A stretch of DNA of 63,566 nt, the filler included, from Platydemus manokwari (lineage: Eukaryota), in assembly GCA_037951405.1 (NCBI GenBank). It is 5 parts of 5 records of this genome, joined end to end, with 100 filler letters (N's around TTAATTAATTAA, not from the genome) between each part and the next. Parts side by side here need not be neighbours in the genome. Positions count along the whole stretch, not along the records: positions 18,415 to 28,786 come from JBBMOY011138883.1; 4 more parts are not named here. One strand, written 5' to 3'. Every line of letters begins with the position of its first letter. Positions within the stretch are counted from its first letter, which is position 1. This document shows positions 18,315-63,468 of the stretch, one piece after another. Both the position numbers and the translations under genes were made by a program. The notes below the pieces were generated by a model, which saw only the letters and a list, made by a program, of their open reading frames with translations, had not been told where the DNA came from and did no database searches.

Positions 18315-18414
18315 NNNNNNNNNNNNNNNNNNNNNNNNNNNNNNNNNNNNNNNNNNNNTTAATTAATTAANNNNNNNNNNNNNNNNNNNNNNNNNNNNNN
18401 NNNNNNNNNNNNNN
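18315..18414. other. Artificial contig spacer (44N-TTAATTAATTAA-44N)
   Basis: Identical 100-bp structure occurs four times; the 12-mer places stop codons in all six frames. Confidence 0.97.
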
Positions 18415-18683
18415 AGATGTAATTCTCCGGGATATTTTCCTGTTGAAAATTTATTTAAAAATTTATTGTTTGTTATTTGAGATTGTATATCTCCACCTTT
18501 TTTGAAAAATGAAGAATATTTTTCTTTGAAATTTTGAAATTTTTCTTCTTTACTGCTTTTTTCATTATTAATAGTTTTTTCATTACTACTTTTTAAAATA
18601 TGTTTTTTAGTTTGTTCATGATTCCATTTATTATTTTTTGAATAACTTTTTTCACAAAAATCACAATAGTATTTTTCTACCAT
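18415..18683 (-). CDS. Polinton/adintovirus-like ORF: U1-type C2H2 zinc finger plus probable start of a parvovirus-type PLA2 (PLA2X) domain, truncated by contig end
   Basis: Intronless Lys/Asn-rich ORF with YYCDFCEKSYSKNNKWNHEQTKKH. It ends GKYPGELHL at the gap, resembling the ELHL..PGYxYxGPG lead-in of adintovirus/Polinton PLA2X proteins. The catalytic part is not visible. Confidence 0.55.
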
Positions 18684-18747
18684 TTTTTGTTAAAGAAATT
18701 TATTTATTTTTGGAATTTTTTAACTTTTTTTTTATAGTCGCTTCGGT

Positions 18748-18999
18748 AGTAGATAAGATAACCATACTTTGAGGAAAAGACCCCGTTTTCAGGTAATTAA
18801 TGAAGAAATTTACCTTTTTTTTATCGATTTTGTTTAGTACTTTTTTTAGTTTTTTTTTTTTTGGTGGGGTGCTAACCCCTTTTTTAGGTAAATAATGAAA
18901 AAAATTTACCTTTTTCATCGATTTTTCTACTAGTTTTTTTACTACTTTTTTATTAGTAGATTTGGGGTCTGTCCTCAAAGTATGGTTATCTTATCTACT
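18748..18999. repeat. 36-37-bp inverted repeat (AGTAG...CTACT) enclosing two ~85-bp imperfect direct repeats; Polinton-terminus-like
   Basis: 18748-18775 AGTAGATAAGATAACCATACTTTGAGGA is the exact reverse complement of 18972-18999 and extends to GACCCC/GGGGTC. Each inner repeat contains an AGGTAA...TTACCT mini-hairpin. Confidence 0.85.
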
Positions 19000-19222
19000 T
19001 GCATATCTAGTAAATCAGATTTTACAAGCATCTCATCTGAGCATGAATCAATTCAATGACACTATTAACCGTATGACTAAAATAGCACATCAAAACCTGA
19101 ATGGATGGATTCAATTAAACGGCAGATGGGATCAACTAATGCAAACAACTAATAATAATCAGACTACCCCAAACATCTTCGAAAGTCTAGGAATAGAGGA
19201 GCCCAGTGGTAACAATGAATTC

Positions 19223-19765
19223 ATGAATACGCTTCTAAAATATTATTAAGAATGAATGTCATAAGTAAAACCTCATTAATGATTGCACCTTATGATTGAG
19301 CCAAGCCAAATCTTTCCTCTATTTATTCTCTAGTCAACTTAATCGAATGTCCAGTAGTTAACCCATATAGAGTAAAAGAGGGACAACCAGTAAAATATTA
19401 TATGTATCAAGGGATGGATTTCTACCGAACTACTGTTAAAGAGTGTAGAGTAACTCGAGCAACATTTGAATATTATTGCGGCATACATAGTAGAACTGCT
19501 ACTTTAGATGCTAAGCTCATACCTCGAAATGTCAAAATAACACCTGGAAATTGTAAGGAAGCTTTTGACACTGAAAAACTATGAATAGATAACGAATTAC
19601 AGCTAAAAGCAAGAGAAGGGTCAATTTTAGTAGAAACCATTACCCAAGGAGGTACAATAGCAGCCGATGGCTCATGTACCGGTCGTGCAAAATATCGGAA
19701 GGGCCAACTCATCGAATTCGTAGTTGATATCAAAGACTACCAAATTGAATTACGCACTTATATGC
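19223..19765 (+). pseudogene. Chuvirus-type (class III, gB-like) envelope glycoprotein, N-terminal fragment
   Basis: One frame from 19252 reads IAPYD*AKPNLSSIYSLVNLIECP...YMYQGMDFYRTTVKECRVTRATFEYYCGIHSRTA...ITPGNCKEAFDTEKL*IDNELQL...TITQGGTIAADGSCTG...EFVVDIKDYQIELR. The YDC / SL...C / C-x9-CGxHS / C..A / G....DG.C.G pattern is typical of chuviral and chuvirus-derived retroelement glycoproteins. Two in-frame TGA (19297, 19582), a probable frameshift in the signal peptide and a 3' truncation. Confidence 0.75.
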
Positions 19766-20523
19766 CTCACTGCTTAATGCATTTTGGTTTTTATCGGGTT
19801 TTCTTGAAAATAATTCGTTTGATCGTAAAAATTCATTTCTAACTGCATTGTCTTGAATTAAATGGTGTATGATCGAACATGAATTTATTGATTTTCCATA
19901 AGTATTAATATTTCGAGAAAATAATAACCGATATTTGTTTTAAGCTCAAACTTCAGTGTTTTCAAGAAATCGTTGAAAAGTTTCAAAAAAATATTATGAA
20001 ATAAATCAATTATCAACGGGAAAAAATGCTTTAAAATTAATTTCGAATGCACTCAAACTAATTTTCTAAATATTGTAATACGTAATAATTCTTCATCATT
20101 AATTTAACTCGGTTTAACTTTAAAATCAAATTTTATAAATGATTCTGAAATTTGAAGTTTTTATAGATTTATTTCAAAATCGATTTTCATCTTTCCTAAT
20201 TTATAAAAGAATTTCTTTCACCACAAATCTTATTTTTAAATTATAATTTGACCTTGAATTTGTTTAAGTATTCGCAGCGAAATTTATTAATTTCTTATAA
20301 ACACACAATTTCAAATCAAAAATGTTAACTATAGATTATTGAATATATTTTATATATCGATTAAATGATTTTATTAGTATAATTTATCTTTTAAATATAA
20401 TTTTATAAATATTGATTTGAAAATAAATTTAATTGTTCGACAATCGATAATAATTATAATTTAATTTTAGAAAATCTAAGATTTCAGATAAAAAAATAAT
20501 TATCTATTAAAAAATAATAATAA

Positions 20524-23500
20524 ATGGGGTAAGTCTTAGTCAATTGAACAGGAAATTATTGATTGAATTTCTAGAGACTTGGAAAATTTTAGGATTCAGC
20601 TCTACGATGGTAACTTTGATGGAGTCAAAAGCTCCCTATCAGCTGAATTCATAAACATCATAATCGACCAAGAGGTGAGAATTATTTGTTTGAATTAAGT
20701 AAAAACTAATGTCGACATCTTCAAAATTGTGTCGAAATCATAAACTCTTGTTGAACAAATTTTTGCTATAAAATGATTTTGCAGAACATTGAGGGATCCT
20801 CTATAATTTTACTACAAATATAATAAAAATTAGATTATATAATCGCTGATGTCACTTGTAATATTTTTGGATTATTAGCCAAATTAAAACATATTCCAAT
20901 AATCAATAATGAACATGTTCGACGAAATGCTTTAGAAATAGATTTACGCGAAACTACTGCCTGGAATTCATAAATAATGAAATCTCTTTAGCCAATTATT
21001 AAGACAATCACGAGATTTTTTCAATAATTTCTGAGGACTGGATGCACCCTGGGAGTTTAAGATATTATTCTGCGGCGCTATTAGTCAGACGGATGAAATA
21101 TCCGAAAATTATTTAACGCATTGTTCTTCATTCTCAAAAATATTTCGTACGACGCTCTATGAGGTGAAAAATATTCAAAAATATATCCGAATATATCCAA
21201 ATATTTGTAGACATGGTCCACCATTAGTCATGTCATTTTCACACACACACACACACACATATGTACAATGTTGTGCCCCTTGTGTGTGTTTAGAGTGGTC
21301 ATTGTTTCAAAAAGCATCATGTTGTTGAATCATTGATTATTGCAGAGCCAGACAACGCCGATTCACATAGCATGCCAACACGGACATTTAGATATTGGCA
21401 AATTATTGATTGAACACCAATGTAATATCGAAAGTGAAACGAAACTGGTATGGATATTCGTTACCAGTGTGATTTTTAAAATATTATCTTTTGCTCAGAA
21501 CTGGCGACCAATTCATATTGCCTGTTGGTATGGCCATATCGATCTTGTGATGTTATTGATCGAGCACCATTGTGATTTGGAATGTGAAACGAATAAGGTA
21601 AACTAAATCACTGAGTTATTCAATCATTGAAATTCCCATCAATCAATATCAATCAATATATATCCATTTAGAAAATGAGGCCCATACACGTAGCTTGTGA
21701 GAATGGACATCTTGACATTGTCGAATTATTGATCAAACATCATTGTGATATTGAATGCGAAACCAGTTCGGTAAATAATTTGTTTGTAATAATGCCAGAA
21801 AATATCTGAAAATAAATAGAATGAGAGACCGATCCATATAGCATGTTGGAATAGCCATTGTGATATTGTTAAATGTTTAATCCAATATCGATGCAATATT
21901 GAATGCCAGATGAAAAGAGTGAGGAAGTGGTTGGTAATTTTGTGATTTTTAAATCAATTATTGCTAGCAAATGAGACCAATCCATTACGGGTGCATGAAA
22001 GGCAAGCTGGATATAGTGAAATTATTGATTGAAAATAATTGTGATATTTATTGTCAAACTGATGTGAGTATTGATTTTTATTATTGATTATTAACAAATA
22101 GTCACATAAATGGGTCAGTTAATCTTTTTGTAGACATGGAGCTCTTGTCAAATACCGAATCCGTTGTGAAATCCCATGCCTCTCATCCTATTCTTAAAAT
22201 TACATGTGACTAATTCTCGTAAATGTCTTGAAAAATATTGAAATTCTTAACTTTTAATTTACTTCTTTGGAAGTACATCTAACGACACGGTCTCATAAGA
22301 AATGCGATTGAGTGCGAAAGACAATGTCAGTTAGAGCTTTAGTTTAGTTATCAATTTCTGTGGACCTAAGACAAGCAATGAGGAATGATTTTTGATAAAA
22401 AAAGAAGCTTAAATGATATGATCTTCCAGAAAAAACTGTTGAAGTTGTTGTATCTGTTTTGTTCTTTTGTCTAACTGGAAACGAGTTGAGCACAAGCTCG
22501 TAGTCATCCTAATCTATTCTTGTGAATCATTTGGTTCCTCGAAATATTGGCTGAAATATTCATTTTCAAAAATTTAATGTTTTCAATTTTTTATTGATTT
22601 TAAGCAGTTATCGATTTTTTTTCATTTATTATTGATTTCATTTAATTCATAATATTCGCTAAGTTTTAATTTTATTCAATAAACAATGTTTTTCGTTGAA
22701 TTTATTAAATTGTAAAATTATATTTCAAAGCAATCGGGATTATTGATCAATATTTTAATCAATTATAATTGCCCATCTCTATTATATTGGAAATAATTGA
22801 TCAACTAGCTTTATATTTAATATAATTGCTATTAGAGTTATAAATGAAGGAAAATAGTGTATCTCGACAGTTGTTGCAAATGAGATTTTGAAATTATCAT
22901 TTAATATTGCCATTTTTTACGAATCGATATTTCTATTGGATAAAATCTCATCACACACATGCTGATTGTTGTCAGTCTTCAATCAAATATTGAAAATCGA
23001 TCAAATCAGAACACGGATTAATTTGTCAATAGCATATCAGAAAATATTAGTTAATCGCAAATAAAGCTTAAACAAATTGACTTTCAAATGAAAACTTGTC
23101 ACAGTTTGTACCATCAGCGATGTTGCAGCGCACACCTCAATTTAAATACCGGCTTCCATATCAAAGTTCGCCGACATCATCGAGACATTGATATATCTTG
23201 TAAATAAATAGACGTTTTAATAACTGTTAATATCAAGGTTGACAAGATACAAAGAAATCATTCGCCCCTGAAGATTTTGTAAACAACATTACCTTTGTTC
23301 CGCACCATTTATTTGTTTACCTTTGTATTAATCGATTCTACGTTCGAAACAAACTGTTTGATATTGTACCTTTTTAAAATATCGTGTTATTCCTAGCTCC
23401 TCCCGTCGTGTATTAATTTCGAATTGAAACTGACTCGAGAGAGGCTTCTACAAAAATCTCTGCACCAATTTAGGAATTTGTTACCTCGGGGAAAACTGCA

Positions 23501-26500
23501 ATTCAATAGTTTAAAATTTACATATGAAGATTAGACATACATATGCGTGTTTTGTCTATTTGTTTCATCATCTACCAGTTATAAATTGATATCGGATGTT
23601 TTCTTTAATAGCTATCGATTAATAGAGATATTTAAAAGTGTTAAGCTAACATATATCGTTATGCCTGATACTTCTCAATTATTATCGATTGTATCATCTT
23701 GTTATCTGATTCCACTATCTAATTCATGTTACCTACTAACAGAAAGCACTCTAGCTCAAAACTATGAACTGAGTCCGATCACAATAGTGATATGTCAGTG
23801 AAGAATCTGCTTCTAGCTGTTATATCAATACTTCATAACATATATGCATCTAATACTACTTTCAATGCTAATATATCGTGAAATTTTATTACTAGACTAC
23901 TTCTACAACTACAAAGACTACCTCATTTCTTTTTCTTGTTGAAAACGGGTTTATTTATGGTGATTCTTTCAATACAACCACACACTGGTACGTCTGCTTG
24001 CGACCTCTTTACTAAAATATATAATATTCAACATGAATAATAAAAATAATTTTTATTTTCAAATTTATGAATTTTGTCTTTACAAATCGTTGATTTATTG
24101 ATTTATCGAATTTGTAATTTTTGGCGGATTCATTGATTCCACTTAAACTTTTATGAGTTTTTTTTCTTAAAATTCAAATTTGGTTATTGATTTCTGTGTT
24201 ACGTAAATAATGGTTTTAAAGGATTTTTAAAAATGCAAGCAACTTTAATTGGTTAATCTAAAGTATTGATTATTAATAAAATTTTGTTACTAACGCTTTA
24301 CTGGGCTCATCAGTGTGATCGGTACTAACATAAAGGAGTGTTATTATTAATCTCAGAAATCTCAGACCCCATTCAACTATATTCCACATTAATTTGCTAT
24401 GCGGAGATCTGATTTATACATACATATTTTATGATTTATCAAAATGGCTGGAGCTTGAAAATATTATTTCCATTTCATGTATATTTTAGATTTTGGGGTT
24501 TTTGTCTATAATTTCTTTATAAGATTATCTTGTTAAATGGAAATATTCTCTGTCGAATCACTGTTCAAATCGACGAATTCATTATTGGTTTTTTTCTATC
24601 TAAATTTTTAATGATAAATAAATTCACTGAGCTGTTGCCATCCAATGGGTGGATTTTGGATGCACATCAGTCCGTCATGTACACCCCTGAGCCTGATGTT
24701 TATTCTGAAAAAAATAAAAAAAACGATTATTTTTATTAAAATCTTGAATTGAAAAGAAGTAGAAATAGAAATTGCTGTCTCAGTATCCTTGGAAACAAGA
24801 TAAATTATATTGATTTTTTCTAAAATTTTGATTATAATGATTTTTAAAATATTTTTAATTGTCAATTAAAAAATCAATTAATAAATTGGATTGTGTGGCT
24901 GAATCTATTTGACATTTTTATATGATTCCAGGACGCATCTTTACCACTGGATTTGGCCACTCAATTCGGTCATGTAAATTGTGTCGAATATCTATCAGAA
25001 ATAATTGATAACAGAAGCAAAGTGAACGATTCGTTATGTTGTATTGTATTTATAAAACAGACTTTCAGACTTTTGCATTTATTCGATCCAACGATGTTGA
25101 AGGATTTGAAAAATTCTACAATTTTTCCAGTTTAGCAATACTGGAACCTGAAGTAGATAAATAATCGATTATTGATGGTATTGATTATTTATTTGATTAT
25201 TCAAGAATGGATTGTCTGTGATTGAGATTGCTTTGGAGAGTAATGCCGATAGAATCATTAAGTCCATTATGGAGAAAAGAACCAATAGTTCGGTAGAATA
25301 TTTATTGATTAAAAAATGATTGATTAATAAATGATTAGGAGATTTCATTCTTGATCAATGCCTTGAAAAATATTGAAAATACTGATCGAATAAAACTAAT
25401 CAAAGAAGTGACATCATAATTTGTGTTTGATGATTTTATTCGTTAATTCAGTGTATTCTTTATCGATCTATCAGAGACCACCATCAAACGGGTTTTCAAT
25501 GGGCTTGTTCACCCAATATCGTCAATGGCGATAGAAAACTCGTTGATTTAATTTGTTTTGAAAATTTATTGATTGATTAATTTTTTGTTATGTAGGTGTT
25601 ACCGTCATTCTTGGAATTAGCGGCAGAACACGGTGCTTATGCTTTTGTCAATGAGCTTTTAAGAAAGAGCATTTATAATGAAGAAGTCAGAAAAAATCAA
25701 TAATTTATTTCAGATATAAATGCTGTTTCATTATTTCAGTGTTGGATCAATGCAAGAAATATCGCACAAAATAAACATTTTGATCACATATTAAAATCAA
25801 TAACATCTAGACAATCTCTTATCAAATCACGACAACAAGTATTTTCTACTTTTCATTTCATTCATTCAACTTCATACATTTATATACATTTGTATACATT
25901 TATATACATGTATATACATTTATATACATGTATATACATTTATATACATTTGTATACATTTATAGACTTTTATATACATTTATAGACATTTATATACATT
26001 TATATACATTTATAGACTTTTATATACATTTATATATATTTATATACATTTATATACATTTATAGACATTTATAGACATTTGTATACATTTATAGACATT
26101 TATACACATTTGTATACATTTATATACATTTAGACATTTATATATATTTTTATATATTTGAAGGTCAATTTCAGTGGTTTACAAACATCAGTTTGTGATG
26201 GTGATATCGATATGGTGAAATATATTATCGATTATCATCTCACTGATATTCATTCCAATGAAAATGTAATAATGAATATTTGATAATTATTGATTATATT
26301 CCAATGATTATATCCAGATATTTCGAGCAGCTCTAACACTTGCTCAAACTGTTTGTCAAGATGAAATCGTAAATGTTTTGCAACTTTTTATTATCTCTCC
26401 TACCATTGAAGAATCAGAAGTTAATAAATCGATTGATTTTTTTCTGATTATTATTAATAATTATTATTATCGATTATAGAATGTACAATCTGTAGAATTC

Positions 26501-28261
26501 GATGAAGCAGCTTGTATTGACAATAATATCATTGAACCCGGTGAGCATAGATCTGTATATACATTACTGATTTTGTTTGAATGTTATCAATATATTTATC
26601 TTATCAGATATATTCTATTTAAAAATAATACTTAAAATCGATAGAAAATAGAAAATTTTGTTTCTAATGATTTTTAAAATGATCTTTAATTCATATCGAT
26701 TTTCTTATTTATCGATTTATGAAATTGATTGATCAAATCAAATACAAAATAAACGCTTATTTATAACACAGGTTGATGTACAATCATTTATTGATTCTTA
26801 ATATATTTAACAATATAATAATAATAATTTGTAATCGATATCTGACATCAATTGAAATAATTATTTTCTATTAATCAAGTATTGATCTTCTTTCAAATTG
26901 ATAGAATTACAGGAGCTTTGAAGAGAAAATATCCTGCATTACATAACAAGCCCCACACAGGTACTTAAAACGGCCGCCATATCTTTGATTTTATGGACAT
27001 CCTATTTAAGATTTGATTGATTGTATTTAATATTATCAAAGATGTTTTAATCTCTCCTAACATTGTTACTGAAAATAAATTATGAAAAAATTGATTTTAT
27101 TAATCAAAACAATATCATTGAAAAATGATCAAGATTTATTCGATAATGAATTCATTTTATTTTAACAGGACAGCAAGTAATGGTAAGTTGTGCCAGCAAA
27201 TTGATTAGATGCATGGAATAGTTGGTAAATGATATATGTAGCTGATTGAGTTATTAGAATTAATGTGACCAGTTTGGTATTGTTTGGAATTGTATATGTG
27301 GTGATCGCGCATGAGATTGAATATGAAATCTATAATTATTCCCAAATTTATTGATCCATCATAAATATTTATGATTAAATTTATGTGGTCACGATAAATA
27401 CAATTTCCACAAAAGCCCTTGAAATCCTTTGTTAAAACCTAGGAGTTGATCGTTTGACAAAGAAACTTCGTGTACTGTGATGCTTGCTGATTGGCTAACA
27501 TTTGTGGAGAAATTTTTAAAAATTGTTTCAACATATTGAAAATAAATGAGGTGCAAAAAATACATAAAACACGCTTTATTTTGGATTTTTAATACGCAAA
27601 ACATTTCATGGAAAATGCTAGCCATTTAAAATGGGATTTTCGCTTACTTTAATAACGATCAATACGGTTTATCGCTCAAAAAATTGAACAAGACATATAT
27701 CGAGTATCGGATTTTTGTGATTGAAAATGTTTCTTCATAAATTTTCGTGAAGCTTGATGTATTGATTGATTCTGCTTTCGATATTTTTCCACATCAAACT
27801 ATGTTGCATTATGGTATTTTCAAGGTTCCGGTAATTGATTTTATTTTCTGTTTATTCATCCATTACCCGTCTTATTTCTCCAGCTTCCGAAAATCATCTT
27901 TTCGTCAAATACCTTCTATTATGGTCCAAAATTCTAAAGAAAAAATATTTCTTTTATTTAAAAAGCGTAAAAGCTAATTCCTAACGAAAAATTAATTCTT
28001 AAAGTTTTCCGTGTCATTTGGGATATCTTAAAAATATCGACATTTTATTTTTTTCACATCAAATAAAAAAAAATAAAAAATATCGAAATTTAAATTTTAT
28101 TTTTTCACATTATTCGCTGCTTTGACATCGGTTGATGAATTTATTTTAATTTTGCACTTTTGCTTGCTGTTGCTTGTCGCCTTTCCTGTGTGAGAATCAA
28201 AACATTATGTTTCTATTTTCAGACCAAACCAGTCACTCAGCCTCAAGATGAACACCCATCT
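20524..28261 (+). CDS. Ankyrin-repeat protein, multi-exon, 3' end probably lost at the contig break
   Basis: ATG GG|GTAAGT at 20524. Exons 20575-20674, 21346-21447, 21499-21597, 21672-21770, 21820-21918, 21968-22063 and 24932-25021, then ~9 short exons to 26540 and probable exons at 26913, ~27169 and ~28223. Canonical repeats such as TPIHIACQHGHLDIGKLLIE and RPIHIACWYGHIDLVMLLIE. Introns are phase 0 across the repeat region. Confidence 0.85.
21240..21258. repeat. (CA)n microsatellite
   Basis: Run of CA dinucleotides in an ankyrin-gene intron. Confidence 0.9.
25873..26152. repeat. 10-bp tandem repeat (TATATACATT) expanding an ankyrin-gene intron
   Basis: About 27 imperfect copies with TGTATACATT / TATAGACATT variants. 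Confidence 0.95.
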
Positions 28262-28786
28262 TGTAAGTTAAAATTGTTATTGAAATGATGTGTTTGAAAA
28301 AATTGAACGAAATCGTACGTCACAATTTTTATTTTTGTTTTTTTTTTATTGATTTTATACATTTTGAAGAAATCATTGGAATTGGCTGATTGTCTTAATT
28401 TAAAAAGGCTATTATGTGGTAGTTTTTCTAAGGGTCTCTAAAGAACTACTCAGCCGAGATGGCTGACCTGCAATCCTAGAGTCCAACGTGACATATTCTT
28501 AAATATATTGTGTTATTGAGGTGGTTATGGATTTTAAGCAAAACGTGCTGGTAATGAACTTGTTAAATATATTTATGCAATATCGGTCAGTTAGGTTTCT
28601 AACTTTATTATCTTTTCCATGAAATCTGAAACATCACTGCTTAGCTATTCTTTACATACTCTTTCTACAAGAAAATTTCGTAAATGTGCTTCATGCTTTA
28701 TTCTTAATTCAACTCATAGTTACTAACATTATCCTGATGTTATGTCTATTTTTCTGTCTTATGTCATAGTCTTCCCAAACCATGTC

Positions 28787-29288: not shown

Positions 29289-32200
29289 TTATTTTTTACG
29301 GCCCAAAGTGAAGAATTTCTTTTTTCCGTGATGACTTTCACTTGTGTCAGTTGCTCCATGCTGTTGAGAAGGAAGAGTATGTGATCGTACTGTACTGTCA
29401 GTTTCACCAGCGGCATTATTTAATTTTGTGATCCATTCGCTCATTTCTGCCTCTGATTTTGCTTGAAATAAATATTCACCACCATTGGCCAATTTGATTC
29501 TGAAAACGTTGACTCGCTTTGTGTAATCAGTTGCAGGTCCAATCTTAGCTCCGATCAACTGAAGTGGAGATTCATGGTGATATAATTCACTAGGTTTCTC
29601 CTTGCAATGCTTTTGGTCTTTATAAGCACTTAAAGTACTTTCATTAAGTGAAACATAAAGTTCATGCCATGATCGACCAGATGCTTTTTTATTTGCATTT
29701 TCCCATTCATGTTTTCGACTTAATGTTCCTTCGTGTGATTCAGAACTACTCTGTTTGGATGTCGTAGGATGCTCTATTGATTCTTCTTCCTGACTTGATG
29801 GTTTTTGAGAAGAAGTCATTTGTTGTGATGCAGATGAAGCTTCTAAGGTTACTTCCGATTCTATTGCTGGTTCTAACTTTTGTAATTTAGGAGTTGGAGG
29901 TGGTTGAAATTCTTTGATGGCTTCATTTATTCTTTGTAATTTATCTAGTTCTTTTTGTTTTTGAGCTTCTAAAGATGCTTCCTTAGCTCTCAATTCCAGG
30001 GTAGTCAATTTTTTTAACGCTTCAAAACGCTCTTCTTGAGTCATTAATGCTCTTTCAAAGGTGATGTGCTTTTTCAATAAAGCAAGAGTTTCATCGAGAT
30101 TTTCTCCTAGATCTTGACAACTCAAATATGTATATTGTGCCATTAACCAAGACTCAGCCATAGCTGCATCACGAGCAAATTGGTAGACTTCTAATATCAA
30201 ATAGAGATAATCGTATCGTTCAGTCCACTGATCAATCAAATTAACACGAGTAGTCACAACCTAAAAAAGAAATTCAAGTGAATATTCAGTTTGATTAATG
30301 ATTTAATTTCCTACTTCTATGCATTTCTCTCGAATATCGCTTTCACGAGGATGACGTCGATTTAGTAAAGTTCTTCCTAAACTAAGACAAATACTGAAAT
30401 TCTCTTCTCTGGCATCAATTTCAGCTTTCAGACTGCGATGATTATTCACAAGAAGATCAACACCGGCAACATCTCTGTAAATAATTTGATTCAAAAAAAA
30501 TATGAAAATATTTTTTGGAGATCAAACTTTTTCCGAATTTGTTTTTAAATGAACAATATATTTGAGAGATTTAATTTATTCCAAATGCTTATATATAGTG
30601 ATTATTATTTAATGAATGCCAGTAATTTGACTTTGTTCAATATTGTTGAACTGATATATTTTGTCAATCTTTTATAACATGTATGACTGGATAATATTTA
30701 TGATCCATCATCTTATGACTTTTATTCCATCAAGGGAATTTTATACTTACAAATTTATTAAAGTGATTTTACTTTATAAAATGTATATATTTAAAATTTT
30801 GTGCTTAAAATAAAGATATTCCAGGCAATATTGTACAGATAATGTAGATTATTGTTCCAAAATACAAGAGCTATATTGAAATTTTTAATTAGTAAGTTAT
30901 TGTTATAAAACTCACAAAATACAGAGACAGTAATGTTGGGTGAATTATTGCAATATGGTAAATAATAAACATGTGTTATATTCTTTACTGATTGAAAATA
31001 CAAAGTTAAAATATCAACTCATTAAGTTTTTAAATCGGTCAAAATGTTATAAATAGGAATTAATTGATTTTTTAAAATGTATTTCGATCAGTTTGATTGC
31101 GCCCAAATTTTGTAAACACATTAAATCATATTTTTAGATATTCGTAATTTTCGTAAAAGTCAAGTTCAGTGGTTATCTTATAAAATGTCATGTAATTAAT
31201 TATTTCAGTTTATATTTTTAAATAACTAATATAAATAATACACACTTATCTTATAAATCTTTATATATGTACTGAAAAGAGCTTGTAAAATTCAGTATTT
31301 CAATTCACAATTTTACAAACAATATAAAGATAATTAGCTACTTACATAACAGTAAGTATATAATAGTTAACATAATATTACTTTGGTTTATCTTTTGCAT
31401 CCATTTGTTGACGCATTTCATACATCCAATTCATTAGTTCTCGAACCATTGCCAAAAATCGATGAAGATCTGCTGCATCCAATAAATGAACTTTGCGAAA
31501 TTCTGATGCCATTTGTAATTCTCTCCAGGCATGAAGTAATTCATCGCGACGATCACAAATCATTCGTTCCTTTTGACCAGCATATAATGGTAACAAGTGA
31601 TTAGCGGTCTCAACTGCTGACTCGATCTGTTGACCTAATCTTTGTACTTCTTGTTCAAATGCTTGATGTTTACGTTGATAAGTTGCAACTGATTTTGCAT
31701 CACGACCCACTTCTTCTGGTATGACTAATTTCTTTTCCGATATTCTATCGAGGAGATCCTAAACAGGTTATTTCTTTAACAGATTTGATAGGAAATATTT
31801 AACTTTACAATTCAATATTTTATCAGAGACCATTTGTTTATAATTAGAAAAATAGACATTCCTATAACACTAGAAAAGTAAATAGAAAAGCAAGTAACGA
31901 AGCAGTCAACATACACACGCATACAGGAAGAAATGGACACACACTGTCGGTAGAATTATTCCAACACACATGCACTGTAGAGAATGAAAGACTAAGTATT
32001 CAGAAATTAGTTTATTCATAGAATCTAGCATATAATATCGATTTTCAATACACTGTACAAGAACGATATAATAAATAAACAGAATTGTTAGCCCTTGTTG
32101 AAATAAGAATGAAAAAGGAATAATTTTTCTATTCAAACAAAGGAAAAATGATTTTATTTTAATAACTCAGGAAGCTTGTAGTCATAAAAAATTAATTATA

Positions 32201-35200
32201 GAATTACCTATAATTATGAAAGGGTTCATGATTACATAAATTAATAAAAGCAAAGTTGTAAATCTGTTAAAATATCGAGGTATCGTGCAGAATTTCAAAT
32301 CGCTGCTTCAAAGTATTTTTAGAGGTATTAATTTTTAGGCTTTGTTAAAATGATGAGGCTGAGTAGCTAAGATAAAATAGTCCATTCTTATTTAATCTGA
32401 AAATAAATCAATCATTAAATTGGAAGCTATTTTGATTTTTAAAGATTAAAATTTTAATCGTATTTTGACTCAGTGATAAAATATTATTTACCTGACAATC
32501 ACTCAAGAATTTGTGCAAATCCCAAGCGGCTTTGAGAAGTTGTATTCTAGTTTCTATTAATTCTAATAAATCGGCCCAAGATTCATTTATTCTATCCTTC
32601 CATTGTGCAATTTCTGCAGACTCAGCGTGTCCTTGATTAATTAAGGCATCACATAATTCATTGGCAGCACAAATTCTTCCTCCACCAATTGTATTTGTTT
32701 CTTTTGCAAATTCAGTGAAACGATCTCTTAATAAACAACAATGTTCATAATCAGATCCCATTTCATGGCTGCTAGCCAATACTATTCTTTCAGCAATCCA
32801 CGTTTCTAAATCTACAATTTCCTTCAACAAATGATATAATTTAACATTTTCTTCCAATCTGAATTGTCTATCAGAACAGAGATCTCTTGATCCAGCATAC
32901 ATTTTGTCTACTTTAGATTGTTTTTGGGCAACGATGTCACTTTGCGGGTGACATGAGTGCAACATTTGCTGGCTGCGTTCTCCTAAACTTCTGATTTCAT
33001 CAGCATACTTTTCGATCATTTTTTCTATGTGCTGATGCTTTTTCATCAAATTATTTGCTCCTTGTTCATCCTAATAAAAAAATGTTCAAAATTTTATCCA
33101 CACAAAATGATTTTCCAAATCTAACAAAAAATAAGCAATTAAATTTATTTGTAACCATAAAGTAAATATAAGTAAAAAATTCAAATTTACTTTTGCCTTT
33201 TCAGGACTCATCAAATATAATTCTTGTTCTGCCATCCATGCTTCTGCCTCACTAGCGTCAAACAAATATTGTTGAGCCACAAGATTGTCTTCCAATATTG
33301 CGGATCGCTCAAAAAGTTTCATCTGCAACTCATCCCATAGTTCCCACAATTGCTTCATCGCGATTTCAAATTTTTCGCTTTGCGGATGGCCTTCAGAAAT
33401 CATTGTTTGCCCATCCTGTTAAGATAATTAACACCTTAACACGACAATAAATTATTCTTACGTCACAGACAGCCTCAATTCTTGGTTTATGATTATCGAC
33501 TTCATTGCTTAGTGTTTTTAATCGACGAATTAACTGTTGAACTGCTAACAACGAATCTCCAATGGCTCCATTATTTTGAACCAAATTAATCTTTTCTTCT
33601 ATCCACTGTTTCTCGTCTTCAATATCTCTTAAGAACTGTCGAACGCGTTTGCGTTTCATCAAATTGTCGCGTCTACCAGCTAATGGTGCCTCAACTTGGG
33701 TTAACTTTACTCTGACTTCTTGTTGCATCTGCTCGATTTCTTCTTCACGGTCTGGGTATTGTTCTTTAAGTTTTACAGCGTGAGTCTACAACACATAATA
33801 TTTCGTTGAATAAACAATCTTAATTAACGATGTAAGGAAAGTTAACTAAATGATTTTACAATTAAAACTGTGATCAATAAGTAAAATAATAATGACCTCC
33901 ATATCTAAAAGAAGTTTGCGCTTTTGTTCTAACTCTTTGTCTTTTTTTTCTTGATCTTTCATCTGTTCATTGATTTCAACTAGACCTACTTCTGTTTCTG
34001 AATCTTCTTCGGTCGTTATTATCTGAGAACTAATATCAGTAATCCATTCATTCATAGATTTAGCAGTTTCATTGAAAATGGTTTCTAGTTAACAATCAAA
34101 ATTCAATATAATAATAATACTTATTATTATTCCAAAAATACCTCGATTAGCATCGGCAATTTTCATACTCTTATCTTGAGCTGTTTTATTCAATTCTGAC
34201 CATTGTTGAGCTAATTCGTCAATTTTCTTTTGAGTTATCTCAGCAAATTGAGGTCGTTGTTGCATCAATTCTTCACCATCCTAAAATCAAGAAAATATAA
34301 AAAATTGTTTGGTTATAAAATAAATGAAATCAAAAAATGAGTTAGAATGTAAAATATGATATATATTATAGAATTTCATTTTTATAATTATTCAAAATTT
34401 TCAATAATGACAAGGGAATGCTTCTCATCTATTCACCAGATTTTAAATATTCGTCACATAAAATAATCATCATTTTAATAATAAAATAAAATTAATATCC
34501 AACAAAGGTTAATAAATTTTGAACTATAGATAATTTTAGAAATTAAGCATGAATCATTTTAAGTAAAAGGGAAATTACACATCATATTTTGGAGGAAAGT
34601 CCAATTTTAATGTAAGTTTTAATGAAATTTGGAAAACACCCTTGTAATAAAGAATTTATTTTTAATAAAATGAATTTATAATAATGCGGCTTTAACAAGT
34701 TTTAAGAAGTATCTCCAGATTTACATCTTGCAGAACGTATCTATCTAATAAAAAAACAATGAACTTAAAAACATATTCATGGAATATATTAAGAATATTA
34801 GATATCCAAAAGATCCCGAAATTGCTTCATATACAAGCTAGGATTTCAAGTACTGCGCTCAATAAGTCAACATTAAAGTAAAGTACGGATCTATTTAACC
34901 ATTTCAAATTAATCATTTACAAAATTGCTAATAAATGGCATGCCTACTGTGCCTAGAGAAAATTGTTTTGTTCTGGAATTAAAAATCTAACAAGAGCAAT
35001 TATTTCTTTTAAATACTGCATTGAATTACATATGTATATAATATTTTGTAAACAAAAAATTATTAATAACTTTTGCATAAATGAATCGACAAATATCCGA
35101 ATAATATTTTGATGAGAAGGATAAATTGATATATATATAAATGACATGTCGTTCATAGTTACAATAAAGCAATAAAAAGAATTTTTATGATTGATATTTT

Positions 35201-38200
35201 CATATCGGAATGATTCAAAGCAAAATAATAAATTGGGCAAAATTTGTATGTAAAATATTGAAATAAAGATATTATTTATGAACTCCAAATAAATGAAAAA
35301 AATTATAGATAGAAAATATATCAATATCTAATATGAATTCTTGAAATAAGATAGAGTTAAATTTTAATGTTAAGATATTTGTTATGTCACCATGTTAATA
35401 AATGACAAAGTTATGAATTTAACATTTCACTTTGCACTAACATATGGTAGAATAAATAAAATATGCATTAACACAAGAAATACGATATTTATAAAATACC
35501 TACTAAGATGAAAGTGTCAAATTAACCACTTAATAGAAAATGTCATTCGGAAACTTCTTTATTAACTCAATAAATCAAAGAAATCTCTCATTAAATTTGA
35601 AAATTCTTTATTGTTTTGTTGATAAAGGTAATATAATTATTAATTATTTATAATGTAATTATTAATTTATTCTATATCCATTTAAATAACATTTAATAAA
35701 ATATTCAGATTTCTACCAGAAATAACATTATTGAAAAATATTTCCACCTCATTTAGCTAGTTACGAAAATATCTCAAACATTATTATTAAATATCAAATT
35801 TCATGTCAATAACTTTCAACACCAAAAAATAATTCACTTTAACAGAAATTATATCACAAGTGTTTTAAAATTTATCATATAATGTAAATTACAAGCGTTG
35901 CACGCACAAAATGAATTTTAGAGATTCGAACCGTAGATTGAATATATCACATTATCATCACTATATATTTTTAGTAATTTCCCCATCACAAATTTTACGT
36001 GGCGTAACATTAAAGTATTTTTATATAGGTCAACTAAAACTCAACTTCTGAGGACTTTTAAATCTTTTGTATTTAATTATATAATAATATTTTATTTATT
36101 TATATAATAATACAAGAAAATATTTTCATTGTTTTTAATCAAATTTATCCTCCGTTGTCCTTTATTATGTAAAATAATTTAAAAAATGTGATATCAAGGA
36201 TACATATTTTGCAAATTTGATTCGCAAGAAAACTTTGGTTAAGGAAAATATATAAATTAAAGTGCAAATTTTGATCACAGGACATATGGAAATAATTTTT
36301 AATATAAATAAAATTATCAATTGTAGCAATTAATCGCTACAGTAAAATAAATACCAGATCATTTATCACTATTCAATTTGATAAGCAAAGATAGCTATAT
36401 TTATTTAAATGAAATCATGTTTTTATATTATTTTTGCACAATAACGGATATTTTATGTAGTGTATCAACGTTCAATTTACAAAACAAATATTTTATTTAT
36501 ATATATGGAAGTTGAATCAAATGATCTTTATCTAATGATTTTATCATAAATATTTTATAAAAATCATTTTCCTTACCTTAATCACTTTTTCAATTTTATC
36601 TTTATTCGCTCCAACTTCCTCTTCAAATGCTTTAAATCGCCCATAACGAGCTGATACATTCTGCAAATCTCGATATGAATCATCAGAAGCAATGATCATC
36701 TTTTCACCAATCCATTCTTCAACGTCTTCGACCTCTTGGTAAAATTCTTGCAATTCCAACTGAGCAGCGAGTAATTCAGAACGTTCACTAGATTTTCTTC
36801 GAATAGCTGCTCTCCTAATGAAATTAATAGTTATTTTAATCAATAGTTAATTTAATTAAGATGTTTTTCGAAATTATCGATTAATTCCCTTCGCATTGAT
36901 GAACTTATTAAATGATGTAATTATTACATCAGTGAATCCCATTTGTGCGGATATTTAGAATGAATAATATCGAATGTGTTCTTGTTATATTTATTATTTG
37001 AGGCGTATACTAAATAGTTTAAATCTGATTCACCTGGCTAATTAAACTGTGTGTAATCAAATAAACAAATTAACCAAATATTATTAAATAATCAACATAC
37101 AAAACATTGTTTCTATATGAATATTATAATAAATATTAACATTATTATCTTTACCTCTCAGCAATTTCATCGCATTTTTTCTGAATTTTCTCAGCATTAA
37201 AATTATTATCGGTAACGAGATTTCTTCCAGTTTCTATGAGAGCATCTATTTTAGCTTCATTGGTGATAGCATTATTATTAACATTATCATGTTGTTTAAT
37301 TGCTTCTTCAACTGCTTCAACAGATGTCTAAAATAAATGTCATCATAAATAATCAATTTTCAACATCATTTATATTAATATATTAATAATTTAATCCTAA
37401 CTGGGAGATCAGTTTTCATCACAGCATTTTCAAGACGGCTAAGGACGACGTCAATCTGTTGAGCATCTTTGAAAAAAGTCTAAAAAATATCACATATATC
37501 AATTAGTATTTAATTCAATGAATTACTTGAGCTTGTAAACTTTGATTTAATACAGCTTCTCTATCGTCACACATTTTCTCCAAACCTTCCCAACTTTCTT
37601 CGATACCGCTCAATCTTTGATTCAAAAACATATATTGGGCATCATCTTGTCCCTCAGTTACTTTCCGACCAAAATTGATGAGACGTTCGAATTCTGGTTG
37701 ATAAACAGCAATTTCTTGTTTCAGTTGATTGTGTTGATCTAACAGCTTTTCAGCTTCCTTAAAAAATCATTTATTAAAATTATATTCTGATAGATAAATC
37801 ATCACCTGAAGATTATTCGGTACGTCCTCTGATGCCACAGCTGTCTGAGATCGACTAAGCCACATTTGGAAATGATCTAGATCTTGTAAAAATCTTTGCA
37901 ACTCACTAGAATCATTTAGTTTATCATCGCGCTCTTTCAACATTCCTTTTAATTCAGTCCATAATTCACTAATTTTTGCTCGTTCTGGTTCGATAATTGT
38001 ACTAACCTCTGGTTTTCTTTGTTCGATATCGTCGGCTTCTTTATCAAGATGCTCTACTTTTGCTTCAATAGCTCTTAAATCTCTCTGAAGGCCACCCAAA
38101 CGTCTTTGCAATTGCATAATTCCTTCCAGATCATTGCCCAATTCGTCAGTAGACTGGATTAATTTTTCCTTTTCTATTATCCAATTTGCTGTTTCTTGAG

Positions 38201-41156
38201 CTTCAATTAAAAATTGATTATATTTATAGCTTGTTTCAATATCTTGCTTCTTCTTATCAACCATATCAGCAAGTTCATTCCAATTAATATTAAGATCATC
38301 TTGCTTCTGAATAATATGCTCGGTATTTGGATGCTCTTCAGATACTAAATCCTTCGACAATTCATTGACTTTACTGACTTTCTCAGCATTTGATCTCATT
38401 TCCGATTCAAAACAATCAAATCGATGTCGAATAACTTCCAATTCTTCCAATTCATCACTGGGTACAAGTGTGATGAGCAATTTTTCTTTTTCAATAATCC
38501 ATGTTTTTACAGAATCAGCAACATCGAAAAGTTTATACATTGACATAGCATCGAATAATTGTTGCTGCCGTAATTTGCTCAATTCTATTAATTCATCATA
38601 ACGATTATCAAGAGTATCAAGATGGCTGAAAATCTTGTTAGCATCTGTTTCTGGATATTCACTGATTGTTGACCCTTGAGCTCGTAATTGGTCTAAAGTC
38701 TGCCTGAAATTTGCCAATTCGTCCATGAGATCTTGGTGATTTTTTATCAATGCCTCAGTAAGGGCCAGTTTTGTACCGACATCTTCATTTTTCACAATCC
38801 TCAATTGATCAAGCATCCATGCATCAGCATCATCACAATCCGTTAATAATTGATAAAATTCCAAAGATTCTTCCAATCTTTGTCGTCTTTCTGCTGTTAA
38901 GTCAACGAGTTGTGCCCAAATAGTTTTCATTTTTTGAATTCTATCTTTGATCTTATCTTTACCCCAGTTGTCGTTTTCGATCAATTCTTCACCTTTCTGT
39001 AAGCCGGTTTCCAAAGCTTGTTGTCTGATTCGGACTTCTTCTTCGAGCGCTTTATGTTTACGTAAAAGTCTTTCCACTGAACTTAAATCATGACCCAAAT
39101 CAGGACTGGACATAAGTTGACTCTTTTCTTTGATCCATTCTTTATCATCTTCCATTTCCCAGAAGAATTGCCACATTTTCTTGGATTCTTGCAGTGCATT
39201 GTGTCTGTGGGATGCCAATTCCAATAAAGCTTGATAAGAATCTTTCAATTCTTGACAACGATTCTCCACTTCTGCTGGTTCAGCCGGTCGATATCCTTGT
39301 AAACTTTCATCGAAATCACAATCAATGAAAACTTGTGCTTGTTCTAGAACTTGATTCTTCCTGATTTCTAAAACTCTAATATCAGCTTCTAATAAACCAT
39401 GTTTCTGCAATAAATCGTCAACACCTAACAAATGTTTGCCACAATCTTCCGATTTCAATCGATTACCGATCTCATCAATCCAATCCAAAAGATAAATAAT
39501 TTCCTGGAATACATTTTGCATTTGTTTTGATAATTCCAAACGATTTCTGCGCATCTTCAACAATTCTAATAGTTCTTGCCACATACGAATAACGTTATCT
39601 TTTCGTGAATTGATTCTCTCAATATCATGATAATTCTCATCAGCCAATTCTTCAGCCACCGTCATCACAGCATTGACTCGTTCTTCATATGCAAATATAT
39701 CCGTTTCAATGGCTTCATGTTTCTTTGTTGCGGCTTCAACAGCGGCCAAATCACTACCGAAATTGTCCTGCGTCACTAATCGTTGATTTTCACTCAACCA
39801 AGCTTCTCTCATCGTTGTTTTTCGATCGAATCTTGATGCTAATTGATCCAATTTCTCCTGTCGAATCAATTCTTCTCTCAAACACAATTCCCGTTCATGT
39901 TCCGCCTTCTCCAATCGTTCCCAGGCTCGATTGATATCGGAAATGACTTTGCCTTCTTCCGGTGTGTACGGTTTCTGATTGTTAGCTCTCATTTCACTAT
40001 GGATTGTGAATAATAGCATTTCCAAATTGCCTTTTTCGTTAAATTTCGGTGGTTTCTCACTGATTCGATAGGTGTTGAATGCTGCTAATTGTTGTTGAAC
40101 ACCAGATAAAGAATTAGCAAATATCCGTTCATCTAACAATTGAATTGTATGATTGATCCATTCTAATAAATCCGATGATAATCGATCGTATTCCCGTATT
40201 CGATCTTCTGCTTCCATGGCTTGGCTTAATACTTTTCCAATACGTTTGCATTGAACGTTTTCGGTTTTCATTTTATTGAAATGGTGATAGAGCGTCACAA
40301 CGTACGTCATGATTGATTTTTCGTCTGGTTGTTCGACATTGATATCTTCGGCATCCAACAGTTTCGGAATCATTAAATCGTCTTCTGCAACATTGAAAGC
40401 ATTTCTCAAATTCTGCAATGGTGTGGACTTGTGAAGTTTCATATATTCAATGAGTTCTGGACAATGTTTGTGAATGATAGCATTGAACGCCAATCCATCC
40501 CGCCAACTGGTGGTGAAATTGCGAATGTTAACATTATTATATCCGGCGGTTTTCATTTGGCACCACAACAACAGAGCATCTTTAGCGCTTCGAGCATCGG
40601 AAGCATCGTATTCATCGAGAACGATATCTTGGATTTGAAATCGTAATATAATTGTCCATACCAAACCAAGTGTCAATCGAGGATTTCCATCGACAATATC
40701 GTGTGCGCCTACATTTTCCAAATGGACATGTTGATCAAGAAGAAAATTTATGGCTTTGTCAACATTAACCAAACAGTGAATACGCATTTTTCCACGGGTA
40801 GGTTTCGGTAATTTTTCACAGGCTAAAATTTCCAATAATTTGATCAGTTTTTTGCCGTCTCTTAAGTCCAAATATAGATCATCGACATATTCCGCAACTT
40901 TGGCCAAGTGTGAATTCATCCATTTTGTGAATGTTTTCTTCTGAACCATTTCTCTTTCCTCTGAATTTTAATATTAATTAATTAATTAATTACATTTTCT
41001 TATGAAAAAACCTGCTAAGGCTTTGATTCTTGATCGTTCATACAACTTTGAAACACTATCTCCTCCTTCAAATTCGTCATCATCACTGAAATATGCTCCA
41101 TTCCCATTTGCATTTGTATCCCATTTGATATTTTGCTGAATACTTTGAATTTCCAT
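29289..41156 (-). CDS. beta-Spec: Beta-spectrin (conventional, with C-terminal PH domain), complete
   Basis: ATG at 41156, MEIQ...YERSRIKALA|EEREMVQKKTFTKW. Tandem CH actin-binding domains (SAKDALLLWCQMKTAGY), a long series of spectrin repeats, then the partial repeat QFARDAAMAESWL. PH domain (LSRKHEWE..KKASGRSW...YLFQAKSEAEMSEW) and end KKKFFTLGRKK*. Exons join in phase through GT-AG introns. Confidence 0.97.
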
Positions 41157-44502: not shown

Positions 44503-47500
44503 TTATTCGTATGATAGATTTCGTTTCCAAATCTTCACTTTACAGTCGCTGAAATTGAATTCAAATCGATAAATAAATGTGAAATAATAACAATAATAAT
44601 AATATTAATAGAAAAATAATTATGAGACATGCGTCCAATGAAAATCATATGATTCTGCTGTAAAATTTTATTCGTCCAATATTATAAAGATAAAGGAAAA
44701 ATCGATAAGAATAAACTTTATCGACAATAACAATATTATCGAAATAGTAATTGGCACAACATGTGATTTTAAACAGATTTTTATCGTAGTTATAAATATT
44801 TGCATTACCTTTTGGTCGTCATTGATCATTGAAATTGACCGAATTTTAGAAAAGTTCAAGAAAATGTTCGAATAAATTAAATGATATAATATTTATTAAA
44901 GCTGGCAAACACAATAATTGGTCAGTGGGAAATTTGCTTTATAGAATATTAGCGCCAATCCAATTATCAAAATATTGGAGGAAATCTATTAGATAACAAG
45001 TGATACCATATCACAAGATTCATTAACAATATATTGATCGTCTAAATACGGTGGGTATTGCAAGGGGAACATTAAACCAAATAAAATTCGGGTGAGGATG
45101 GTACATTAAATACCTGGCCACAGATAGTTGTTACCGTTATAATTATTATTTGGCCATCTAAATCAAAATGAGATACAAATAATTGGAATAACGGAAATTA
45201 TTTCGAGTTGAAAGATATTGGATCAATATCAGGATGCATAAAATCAATAGGAAAATGAATTTACCTAGAAGCGGAGAATATCCGATCGGACGAAGATTTT
45301 AAAGCTGTAATGCCGCACTCATGAGCTTGGACATCACCAATGTAAGCACAGTCTTCCGTGCTCCACAGTTTGATCACTCCAGATCGACAGCCACTAAGAA
45401 AGTGAACACTGTCTGAAGAGAAGCATAAGGCTTGAATCCAATCTCGATGTGCTTGGCTAAATGACGCAATAGGCTGAGCAGTTGACAAATCCCATTTCTT
45501 GATACATGCATCTCGAGATCCAGAAAGTAAAGTCTGATTATTTAAAGCTAAAGATTCCACACCATCATAATGTGGAGGTTGCAGTTCCACGACAGGAGTT
45601 ATCAAACCAACAGAGCCCGGTGAAACATCAAAAACTTTGATGTAATGATCCTGGAAACTCGATTGAAAAACAACATCAGGGAAACATTATTCTTGCCTTG
45701 GATCCAGTTACCAAAGTAGAGGAACATCGGTCTTTATCGGAAGCAGCTAGAACCATGACAGGAGCTTGATGGTTGCCATGCAACTTGCCAACGGCACAGA
45801 ATCGTCTCATATCCCACAACTTAACAGAATTAGCAGTTGCTAAAAACATGGTCACTCCGCCATTACTGAATGCGATATCCATTATGTAATTCTCTCCAGG
45901 TGGACATATGGTTTGGCGACTGTTTTGAGAAAATTCTGGAGGCCCTTCTTGACTCAAACCACTCGACCTGTTAGTTTATTATTGTATCAACAACATACAT
46001 TTATCTATTATTTTATCACCATAATGTTCTGATACACTTCCTACTATCCCTAATGTCCCACATTTTAATATAAAATGTACTGACGGTATACGCCAAGTTG
46101 GTAGCACTGGAGAATCGGACTTTAGTCACACTATTTTGATGCTCATTCAATGAATCAATCTCCGCCAATTTTGTCAAATCCCATATTTTTGCACATCTAT
46201 CTGTACATGTTAATAAAAATCGATATCCAATATTCGTCGTTTACCTTTACTACCGGTCAGTAATATGTTATCAGAGACATCCATATCTAATATAGCTTTA
46301 TGGTGACCTTCTGCAATGTAGAGACATTGCAAAGGCACGTGTGTAGCAAGAGGATTCTTTTTGGAAACCTGTGAAATTGCTCCTCTAGGAATAAAAGGAT
46401 ATTGAAAAAAATCCTATGACAAATCACTACTTTGTTGGGTTTGGCATAGATCGACTTGTTGTTAATCTTTTAAAGACATTATCGGGATTTTGAGATTTCT
46501 GACTAATAACTCTTCGCAGATTTGATGGACTAGCTGGAGGAGTTTCGGCAGTACTAAACCTAAAATTCCAATTGAAATAAAGTAATTATCGACAATGATC
46601 AAGAAAAAGAACGAAAATAATCCCAAAATTACAATTAATACTTATCAAAAATTCAATATTAATTCTAAATATTCTGTTTCAGAATGAATGAAAAAAGCCG
46701 ATAATTCTTTTGAACAAATAATATCTCCTTGACAACCGACACAAAATTTGATCATAAATCCAGTATCGTAATATTTTAATTGAGGGAAATTAAAAATTAA
46801 TTAAATTGAATTTTTAAAGACTAATGAAATTTAAGTTTTATTGGAGTCACAACAACTTGGAAAATATTGATTTATATATATATATATTACGTATATCAAA
46901 AGTGAAAACCGTTCGGTTGCAAATAAAAATGCTAACAATTGGTGTGCAAATAATTAAATAGTCACATTATCAAAGACAATTGAAACCAAATGATCAAAAT
47001 TATTATATCAAAATAAAGAAACCATTGTTGTGGAGTCAGTTACAACATTAATGTGAATGTTGTTTTATTGGTAGAATAAGAAAAAACCCGGAGAGATGGA
47101 TTTGAAATAAATAGATCTAAAATCTGAATTTCATTTAAAAATTCATGGTCACTTTAATTTCAAATATTGTTAAGATTGATAATGTGTTATTTTTTGAGAC
47201 TTATACTCGATCTATTTTATTGAAATATTCATTTTTCAGTTTCAAAGAAGAGATGTAATGTGCTTATTGAGCAATTCAGATTTGAGACAAATGAAACTTT
47301 TATAAACACGAATATCTTGGATCGAGTATTCAGTAAAACTGATTCTTTTTTGATTCATCAAGATTATCTTTGGATAATCAACGAATATGCGCATTTAAGA
47401 TTTTTATTCATATAAAAACTCTTATCTGGTTGTCGTTCGTTATCGTATTGTTATAATTTATTGTAGTTATTAATTCTTCTTGTCAATATCACATCAAGTG

Positions 47501-53500: not shown

Positions 53501-53764
53501 TGTCTTTTCCTGTTCCAATGTTCGAATTTGATTATCAGCAATTCTTTTCTCCTTGCGCAATTGGACAATTTCCTTATTACGAGTGGTTTCTACGACTCTA
53601 GTTCGTCGGGTTTCTTCACGGAGTTTTTTGGATAATTGGACTTTCATTCCTTTAAGATCGTTCAATTCCTTTTGCAATAACCGTAGCTCATGATCCTTGC
53701 GTTGTTGATTTTTGAGCATTATAGTGTGTTCTCGTTTGGCCGTTTGTAATTGATTGAGTTCAGA
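44503..53764 (-). CDS. KIF21: KIF21-type kinesin-4: coiled-coil stalk and C-terminal WD40 propeller; motor exons not in this contig
   Basis: Exon 53465-53764 (LQTAKREHTIMLKNQ...RNKEIVQLRKEKR...ILKRKQEE|VEALRRR) matches the KIF21 stalk. WD40 exons include PLQCLYIAEGHHKAIL, LTGSK, VTGSK|DHYIKVFD, LQPPHYDGVESL and LSGSRDACIKKWDL. Last exon 44503-44548 reads SDCKVKIWKRNLSYE*. Confidence 0.92.
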
Positions 53765-63100: not shown

Positions 63101-63468
63101 TTTTCACGAAAATAAGTCAAAAAATCATCAAATCTCATTTTAAATTGATCTTGTTTGACAACATCAATGACATCTAATATGTATCCACTTCCTAAATTTC
63201 GTCCAATATCTTCAATAGAAAATGGGGACTCTGGAACTACAATTCTTAAGCCTTTCTTTTTATGAATAATAATCGGTTTCGTAAAACCATTCTTGATAAA
63301 ATAATCCTCAGTAACGTCTTTTCCACGTAATTCCTTAAGTTGCTCACCAATTCTATTCGAAACAACAATTTATTTTTAAATCAAACTATCGACTTACGGT
63401 AAGGAAGGTTTTTCTAATAAAAATTCTAAAAATTCCTTTGTTCCGGACAATGGCATTTTTTCAATACA
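60139..63468 (-). CDS. KDM7: JmjC histone demethylase, KDM7/PHF8-type, 5' partial
   Basis: Motifs [80 protein letters not shown] and [13 protein letters not shown]; Fe ligands H-x-D...H are intact. Upstream motifs fit KDM7/PHF8 better than KDM2. The 3' exons (~61917-62095, ~60981-61074, ~60139-60267) are inferred by phase. Confidence 0.85.

Follow-up and report, generated by a model that had tools for sequence, protein, structure and literature searches.

Polintons (Mavericks) and adintoviruses are the described systems closest to the left part of the locus analyzed here. In the available portions of the published descriptions, PLA2X consists of PLA2 plus pX and is carried by Alpha class adintoviruses (Starrett et al., PMC8502044), and one map in the supplement of that paper labels PLA2X and integrase separately. 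CAP and INT are likewise separate genes of the Sf Maverick in the relevant section of PMC5803895, and PLA2 appears in Polinton maps or groups in excerpts of two further sources (PMC3671162; 10.64898/2026.06.19.733378). Vertebrate Mavericks have terminal inverted repeats with (AGT)2//(ACT)2 or (AG)3//(CT)3 motifs at the two ends, according to a passage of PMC8097293. For the right part of the locus, two kinds of precedents are relevant. Excerpts on nematode Mavericks describe MFUS-1, an intact 866-aa core gene located inside the element (Widen et al., 10.1101/2022.07.12.499685; 10.1101/2023.08.22.554363), and an excerpt of PMC11071296 reports a candidate envelope gene in an adintovirus; the matched passages of 10.1101/2025.02.07.637071 contain nothing on Polinton envelopes. 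Chuvirus glycoproteins, in turn, are described in parts of PMC7642597 and PMC10084718 as multiplied through Pao elements, with LTR fragments on their flanks, and they occur both in Pao elements and as EVEs (also PMC12440569, in the part available).

The locus lies within a window of 63,566 nucleotides from Platydemus manokwari (assembly GCA_037951405.1), in which contigs of an AT-rich animal genome are strung together by N44-TTAATTAATTAA-N44 linkers. One of the four linkers in this window (18315..18414, no strand assigned) bears out the contig start at 18415 given in a preliminary description of this DNA. The contig under study extends from there to 28786, and the DNA to the left of the linker is not shown to be adjacent to it. 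The change of composition near 19000 noted in the same description is also apparent: the sequence is T-rich with a GC fraction of 0.20-0.28 to the left of 19000 and A-rich with 0.34-0.37 to the right. Farther right, single-copy AT-rich host DNA leads toward an ankyrin-repeat gene (19762..21229, no strand assigned; depth 14-15 in contigs of the public run X1). This intron-containing gene begins at about 21337 (Ank match, E 8e-15) and has one repeat per short exon in 21337-22059. No Rfam match was found in 18415-20500. Elsewhere in the window, we observed a 10-bp tandem array (25806-26225), a 30-bp tandem array where the preceding contig ends (18098-18314), and host genes within 29292-40967, 45264-45686, 51959-53764, and 62476-63369, comprising a JmjC gene and exons named by eye from translations as beta-spectrin-like, WD40, and kinesin-like. 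Another contig, with no link to the locus under study, contains a decayed LTR-retrotransposon-like relic (56433-59383, minus strand) with a gag-like frame recognized by eye (58831-59277), a weak rve_3 match (56843-57079, E 0.02), and direct repeats 2860 bases apart.

We interpret the locus as mostly an ordinary nesting of two mobile-element fossils, in which a Polinton-like end was inserted into an older env-bearing element, and assign this reading a probability of about 0.8. The preliminary description had favored the same reading, and it is supported by contig depth and by a contig that ends exactly at CTACT 18999.

The AGTAG...CTACT inverted repeat reported previously consists of two arms, 18748-18775 and 18972-18999 (both annotated on the plus strand), which are perfectly complementary (28/28) and lie 196 nt apart. 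No perfect inverted repeat in the window is longer, and the next one measures 19 nt; a 20-mer from it occurs at only these two sites in the window, with 0 expected (100 shuffles), and the hairpin strand has a folding z of -10 relative to 200 shuffles. The loop contains two 39-bp direct repeats that are 79% alike and 95 apart (18781..18914, plus strand). A 16-mer from the arm was also detected once each in 20 viral contigs, with the best agreement reaching at most 23 of the 28 letters, and was taken as a chance match. The AGTAG-type hairpin is absent from the nine related loci checked.

The boundary of the repeat was located using contigs of run X1, which holds 0.68 of the words of the window and may be its own source; the depth of these contigs is not a copy number. 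Among the contig pieces listed, one (18875-18999, depth 105, zero differences) stops exactly with the final base of the outer arm, which reads ...TCTACT. Another (18726-18837, depth 72, zero differences) runs through the inner arm and crosses to 18726, indicating that the AGTAG... arm is not an element end. To the right, a single contig of depth 19.5 covers 19066-19442, starting 66 bases beyond the CTACT 18999 boundary, and the host DNA contigs have depths of 14-15, so that the single-copy range is 14-20 and the repeat side, continuing through the left arm, stands at 5-7 times this depth. Because depths of 105 and 72 on the left contrast with 19.5 and 14-15 on the right, the left side appears to be common to near-identical copies and the right side does not. 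From the contig break and the read-through of the inner arm, we infer that the element ends at 18999 and that the hairpin lies within a multicopy terminal region of at least 274 bp (18726..18999, no strand assigned), likely a terminal inverted repeat. One end is present in the contig, and its TCTACT agrees with the published (ACT)2 motif (PMC8097293) in five of six letters. At least three contigs have the final 36 bases (from 18964) in common and differ in the inner sequence; these are possibly related families with the same terminus. None of the runs listed as holding words of the window is an RNA run.

Inward of this end lies the leftward intronless zinc-finger ORF that had been recognized previously. 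It starts with an ATG at 18683 and continues on the minus strand for 89 codons without a stop until it is cut by the contig start (18415..18683), leaving the 5' part. The encoded sequence consists of one C2H2/U1-type zinc finger (weak zf-U1 match, E 0.011, below the cut-off), a linker rich in K and N, and the lead-in motif to a PLA2-like domain of the parvovirus type. This motif is the only portion of that domain inside the window, the catalytic part falling outside. An exhaustive homolog search with this ORF yielded seven matches, among which P0003 shares the layout of finger and GGDIQ...YPGE, and P0001 matches the last 35 residues at 66%; in the Atlas, only zinc-finger look-alikes were found. 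A profile built from these three sequences retrieved four longer proteins among 1609 candidates. All four long homologs match rve above the cut-off, and the parvovirus PLA2-like family (PF08398) scores above the cut-off in two of them and below in the other two. The left ORF is 75% identical to P0008 and P0009 over 28 aa, ending just before their PLA2 core; these two proteins match rve above the cut-off and have a weak PLA2-like match. These closest long relatives have an integrase at their C-terminus in place of pX. The preliminary assignment to PLA2X was correct with regard to the PLA2 lead, but the closest relatives run in the same ORF into an rve integrase rather than a pX tail.

A profile of the four long homologs identified 4 viral and 21 metagenome loci, mostly 1-7 kb in length; P0003 and P0008 as queries found no relatives in viral contigs. 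The agreement of 98.5% between profiles A1 and A3 is partly circular because the A3 members were found with A1. We scanned 86 ORFs of at least 120 aa from 22 of the 25 loci (shorter ORFs and L003, L004, and L022 were left out). In three loci, a single unbroken ORF combines the PLA2-like domain with rve (L005:473-2146, L006:1303-2682, and L007:919-2082) and adjoins a Pox_A32 ATPase; L005 also contains a weak chromodomain match. The same combination in one ORF is seen in P0008-P0011, and an HD motif is visible in the PLA2 part; the fusion ORFs of L005 and L006 have an added N-terminal DUF5679. Both domains are below the cut-off in L010, and they occur in adjacent pieces in L016, L017, and L018. 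Stand-alone PLA2 ORFs with a similar lead-in are present in L001, L002, L024, and L025. One of these, L001, is a distant locus with pPolB and a double-jelly-roll gene; L002, a viral contig of 12 kb, has terminal inverted repeats, an A32 ATPase, and a 1625-aa ORF without a Pfam match. The stand-alone or more distant PLA2 proteins of these loci show 24-36% identity to the left ORF, compared with 75% for P0008 and P0009.

Judged by these relatives, the left ORF is of the Polinton type. It most likely represents the beginning of a gene for a PLA2-integrase fusion, and probably not a stand-alone PLA2X, given its closest long relatives; the tie to the fusion proteins rests on 28-37 residues, and the fusion in this copy is extrapolated from the relatives. 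The contig itself (18415-28786) contains no pPolB, ATPase, capsid, protease, or integrase core; because it ends at 18415, where the left ORF also breaks off, neither a Polinton core gene nor a target duplication is visible. With no core gene inside this contig, the call of a likely Polinton is indirect. At 18415-18511, the summed X1 depth is 2323, and at least seven contigs agree on the PLA2 lead-in and differ upstream at 18477, so that run X1 contains many diverged subfamilies of the left gene. In run X2 (another organism code, 0.04 of the words), a contig of depth 59 matches 18567-18688 with three differences and then diverges (window 18567-18733); the zinc-finger part may therefore be common to a second organism.

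On the other side of the boundary, the short ORF of unknown affiliation noted in the preliminary description (ORF X; 19001..19249, plus strand) is present as a remnant of 82 codons, with its first ATG at 19043 and a stop at 19247-19249. Its frame is open right to the junction, as expected for a gene interrupted by an insertion, and it likely represents the 3' end of such a gene. ORF X matches no Pfam family, including those of polymerases and integrases; none of 24 candidates proved to be a homolog, the best Atlas score (0.84) is uninformative, and no second copy was found among 45 loci or elsewhere in the window. An in-frame ATG at 19252, 2 nt after the ORF X stop, opens the relic of a Monjiviricetes-type (chuvirus-like) fusion glycoprotein (19252..19761, plus strand), and no poly-A gene-end tract was seen by eye between the two. 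The earlier identification of this relic is upheld by a match to PF24664 (Monjiviricetes_fusion; E 4.3e-13; score 48.5 bits, cut-off 27; covering profile positions 25-181 of 653), obtained with X at its two stops (19297-19299 and 19582-19584). We take PF24664 proteins to be class III, gB-like fusogens. Only the N-terminal quarter remains, truncated at the 3' side near 19761, and no hydrophobic signal peptide is visible. No homologs of the relic were found among 344 candidate longer proteins, which is weak evidence.

Diverged X1 contigs overlie both ORF X, where their summed depth is 224-391 compared with 19.5 for this copy, and the glycoprotein, where at least two of them continue past 19761, the point at which this copy gives way to single-copy DNA. 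ORF X and the glycoprotein thus belong to a diverged multicopy family of their own. Among the variant places in the glycoprotein, 17 of 30 are at third codon positions (p = 0.007). In the other copies, the 24 places comprise 15 third, 8 first, and 1 second positions, whereas second positions account for 4 of the 6 differences seen in this copy alone (Fisher p = 0.003). Therefore, the family appears to have expanded while under selection, and the decay of this copy came later. Neither an LTR nor a long direct repeat was found in contig 18415-28786, and the element containing ORF X and the glycoprotein is truncated on both sides.

The locus resembles Polintons and adintoviruses in its putative AG...CT-type end, its intronless inward-pointing gene, and the start of a parvovirus-type PLA2-like domain and, through the relatives of the left ORF, in the rve integrase (with the chromodomain of L005) and the A32 ATPase. 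It differs in that PLA2X or CAP and integrase are separate genes in the published accounts, as far as the excerpts extend, and PLA2X has a pX-like end, whereas here the closest relatives fuse PLA2 with integrase; furthermore, in place of (ACT)2, the end is TCTACT with an internal 28-bp hairpin. The presence of a class III-type fusion gene close to Polinton sequence is shared with the MFUS-1 Mavericks. However, MFUS-1, as presented in those excerpts, is intact and internal, whereas the relic here is broken and truncated, lacks the completeness of an intact fusogen with signal peptide and transmembrane anchor, and lies outside the inferred end at 18999, on the single-copy contig. In the sections available on Anakin Pao elements and Jingchuvirales EVEs (PMC7642597, PMC10084718), chuvirus-like glycoproteins are similarly multicopy, without neighboring L or N genes, and commonly decayed; unlike in the Anakin elements, no Pao domain or LTR was found in this contig, and ORF X matches no family.

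Several other explanations were considered. ORF X and the glycoprotein could be carried as cargo by the element to which the left ORF belongs, with the hairpin as an internal divergent promoter or origin. The intronless genes, tightly packed and divergent from the hairpin, would fit such an enveloped Polinton, as would the published precedents and the selection evident in the glycoprotein family. Against this, the depth of 105 drops to about 20 between 18999 and 19066, with a contig break at the arm's final base; the junction truncates ORF X; no stop interrupts the 89 codons of the left ORF, as opposed to the stops and truncation of the glycoprotein; and PF24664 was found in 0 of the 86 ORFs from the related loci, a weak negative as these loci are mostly short. 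We regard this alternative as improbable for this element. It would also not be an entirely new composite system, as the preliminary description had offered, since enveloped Mavericks have already been published (MFUS-1 and the adintovirus candidate). The broader proposition that ORF X and the fusion gene belong to a Polinton, either this one or a second family hosting the insertion, is unlikely; if true, there would be an enveloped lineage alongside, or identical with, the lineage that has hairpin ends and an integrase with a membrane-lytic PLA2 domain of its own.

The left element might instead be a shorter derivative or a stand-alone PLA2X module, which would leave the nesting unchanged. 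Such an origin is compatible with the lack of a visible core gene in the contig, with the heterogeneity of the family upstream of the PLA2 lead-in, and with the stand-alone PLA2 ORFs of four loci, but the best identities are to the integrase fusions and the packaging ATPase adjoins the fusion in three loci, making it quite improbable. A MITE-like 252-bp AGTAG...CTACT unit could also have landed between the left ORF and ORF X, in which case these would possibly form one element. The unit is multicopy, has no coding frame with a family match, and its perfect arms extend to 37 bp at 95%. We nevertheless consider this very improbable because the flanks, TTCGGT and TGCATA, show no 6-bp target duplication and the depth-72 contig joins the inner arm to 22 bases on its left, a flank common to several copies. 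Finally, the 18999/19000 junction could be a misassembly of two repeats near the contig end, given the fragmented assembly and the interval 18999-19066, which is unbridged among the X1 contig pieces listed; yet the join lies 585 bases inside the contig and coincides exactly with the end motif, a position not favored by random misjoining, and X1 cover is present in every bin of the stretch, so that this explanation is hardly credible.

Under the preferred reading, a multicopy element whose first gene points inward would end at CTACT 18999 with a 252-bp hairpin. The element is likely a Polinton/Maverick, in which one protein, the product of the first gene, likely combines a zinc finger with a PLA2-like domain and an rve integrase. 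Host DNA would be joined to the AG...CT ends by the integrase. The PLA2-like domain acts in parvoviruses as a virion entry protein; here, it might be packaged with the integrase and aid endosome exit, and the hairpin may serve as an origin or end-recognition structure. The insertion likely occurred in ORF X of a decaying copy of a separate multicopy element with a chuvirus-like fusion gene, which would already have been repeated under selection on the glycoprotein before the insertion. This copy would have lost its left part to the insertion and its 3' three quarters, gathering stops to become a fossil. For the identity of the older element, an env-bearing LTR retrotransposon is the most likely candidate, at about even chances, and another DNA virus-like element and a repeatedly integrated RNA virus are each less likely.

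If the envelope gene were Polinton cargo after all, the known enveloped Mavericks would be extended to a chuvirus-type fusogen. The side result outweighs the locus itself: there appears to be a group of Polinton-type integrases fused to a PLA2-like domain of the parvovirus type, whose HD motif is visible in the relatives. This fusion would be the freshest point and, together with the hairpin end, a probable novelty: it is undescribed in the literature passages retrieved, and subscription papers, Repbase reports, or supplementary maps may contain one. If the fusion is both real and active, the integrase, as a virion protein, would enter together with the genome; entry would thereby be linked to integration, and it could be tested directly whether Polintons move as particles.
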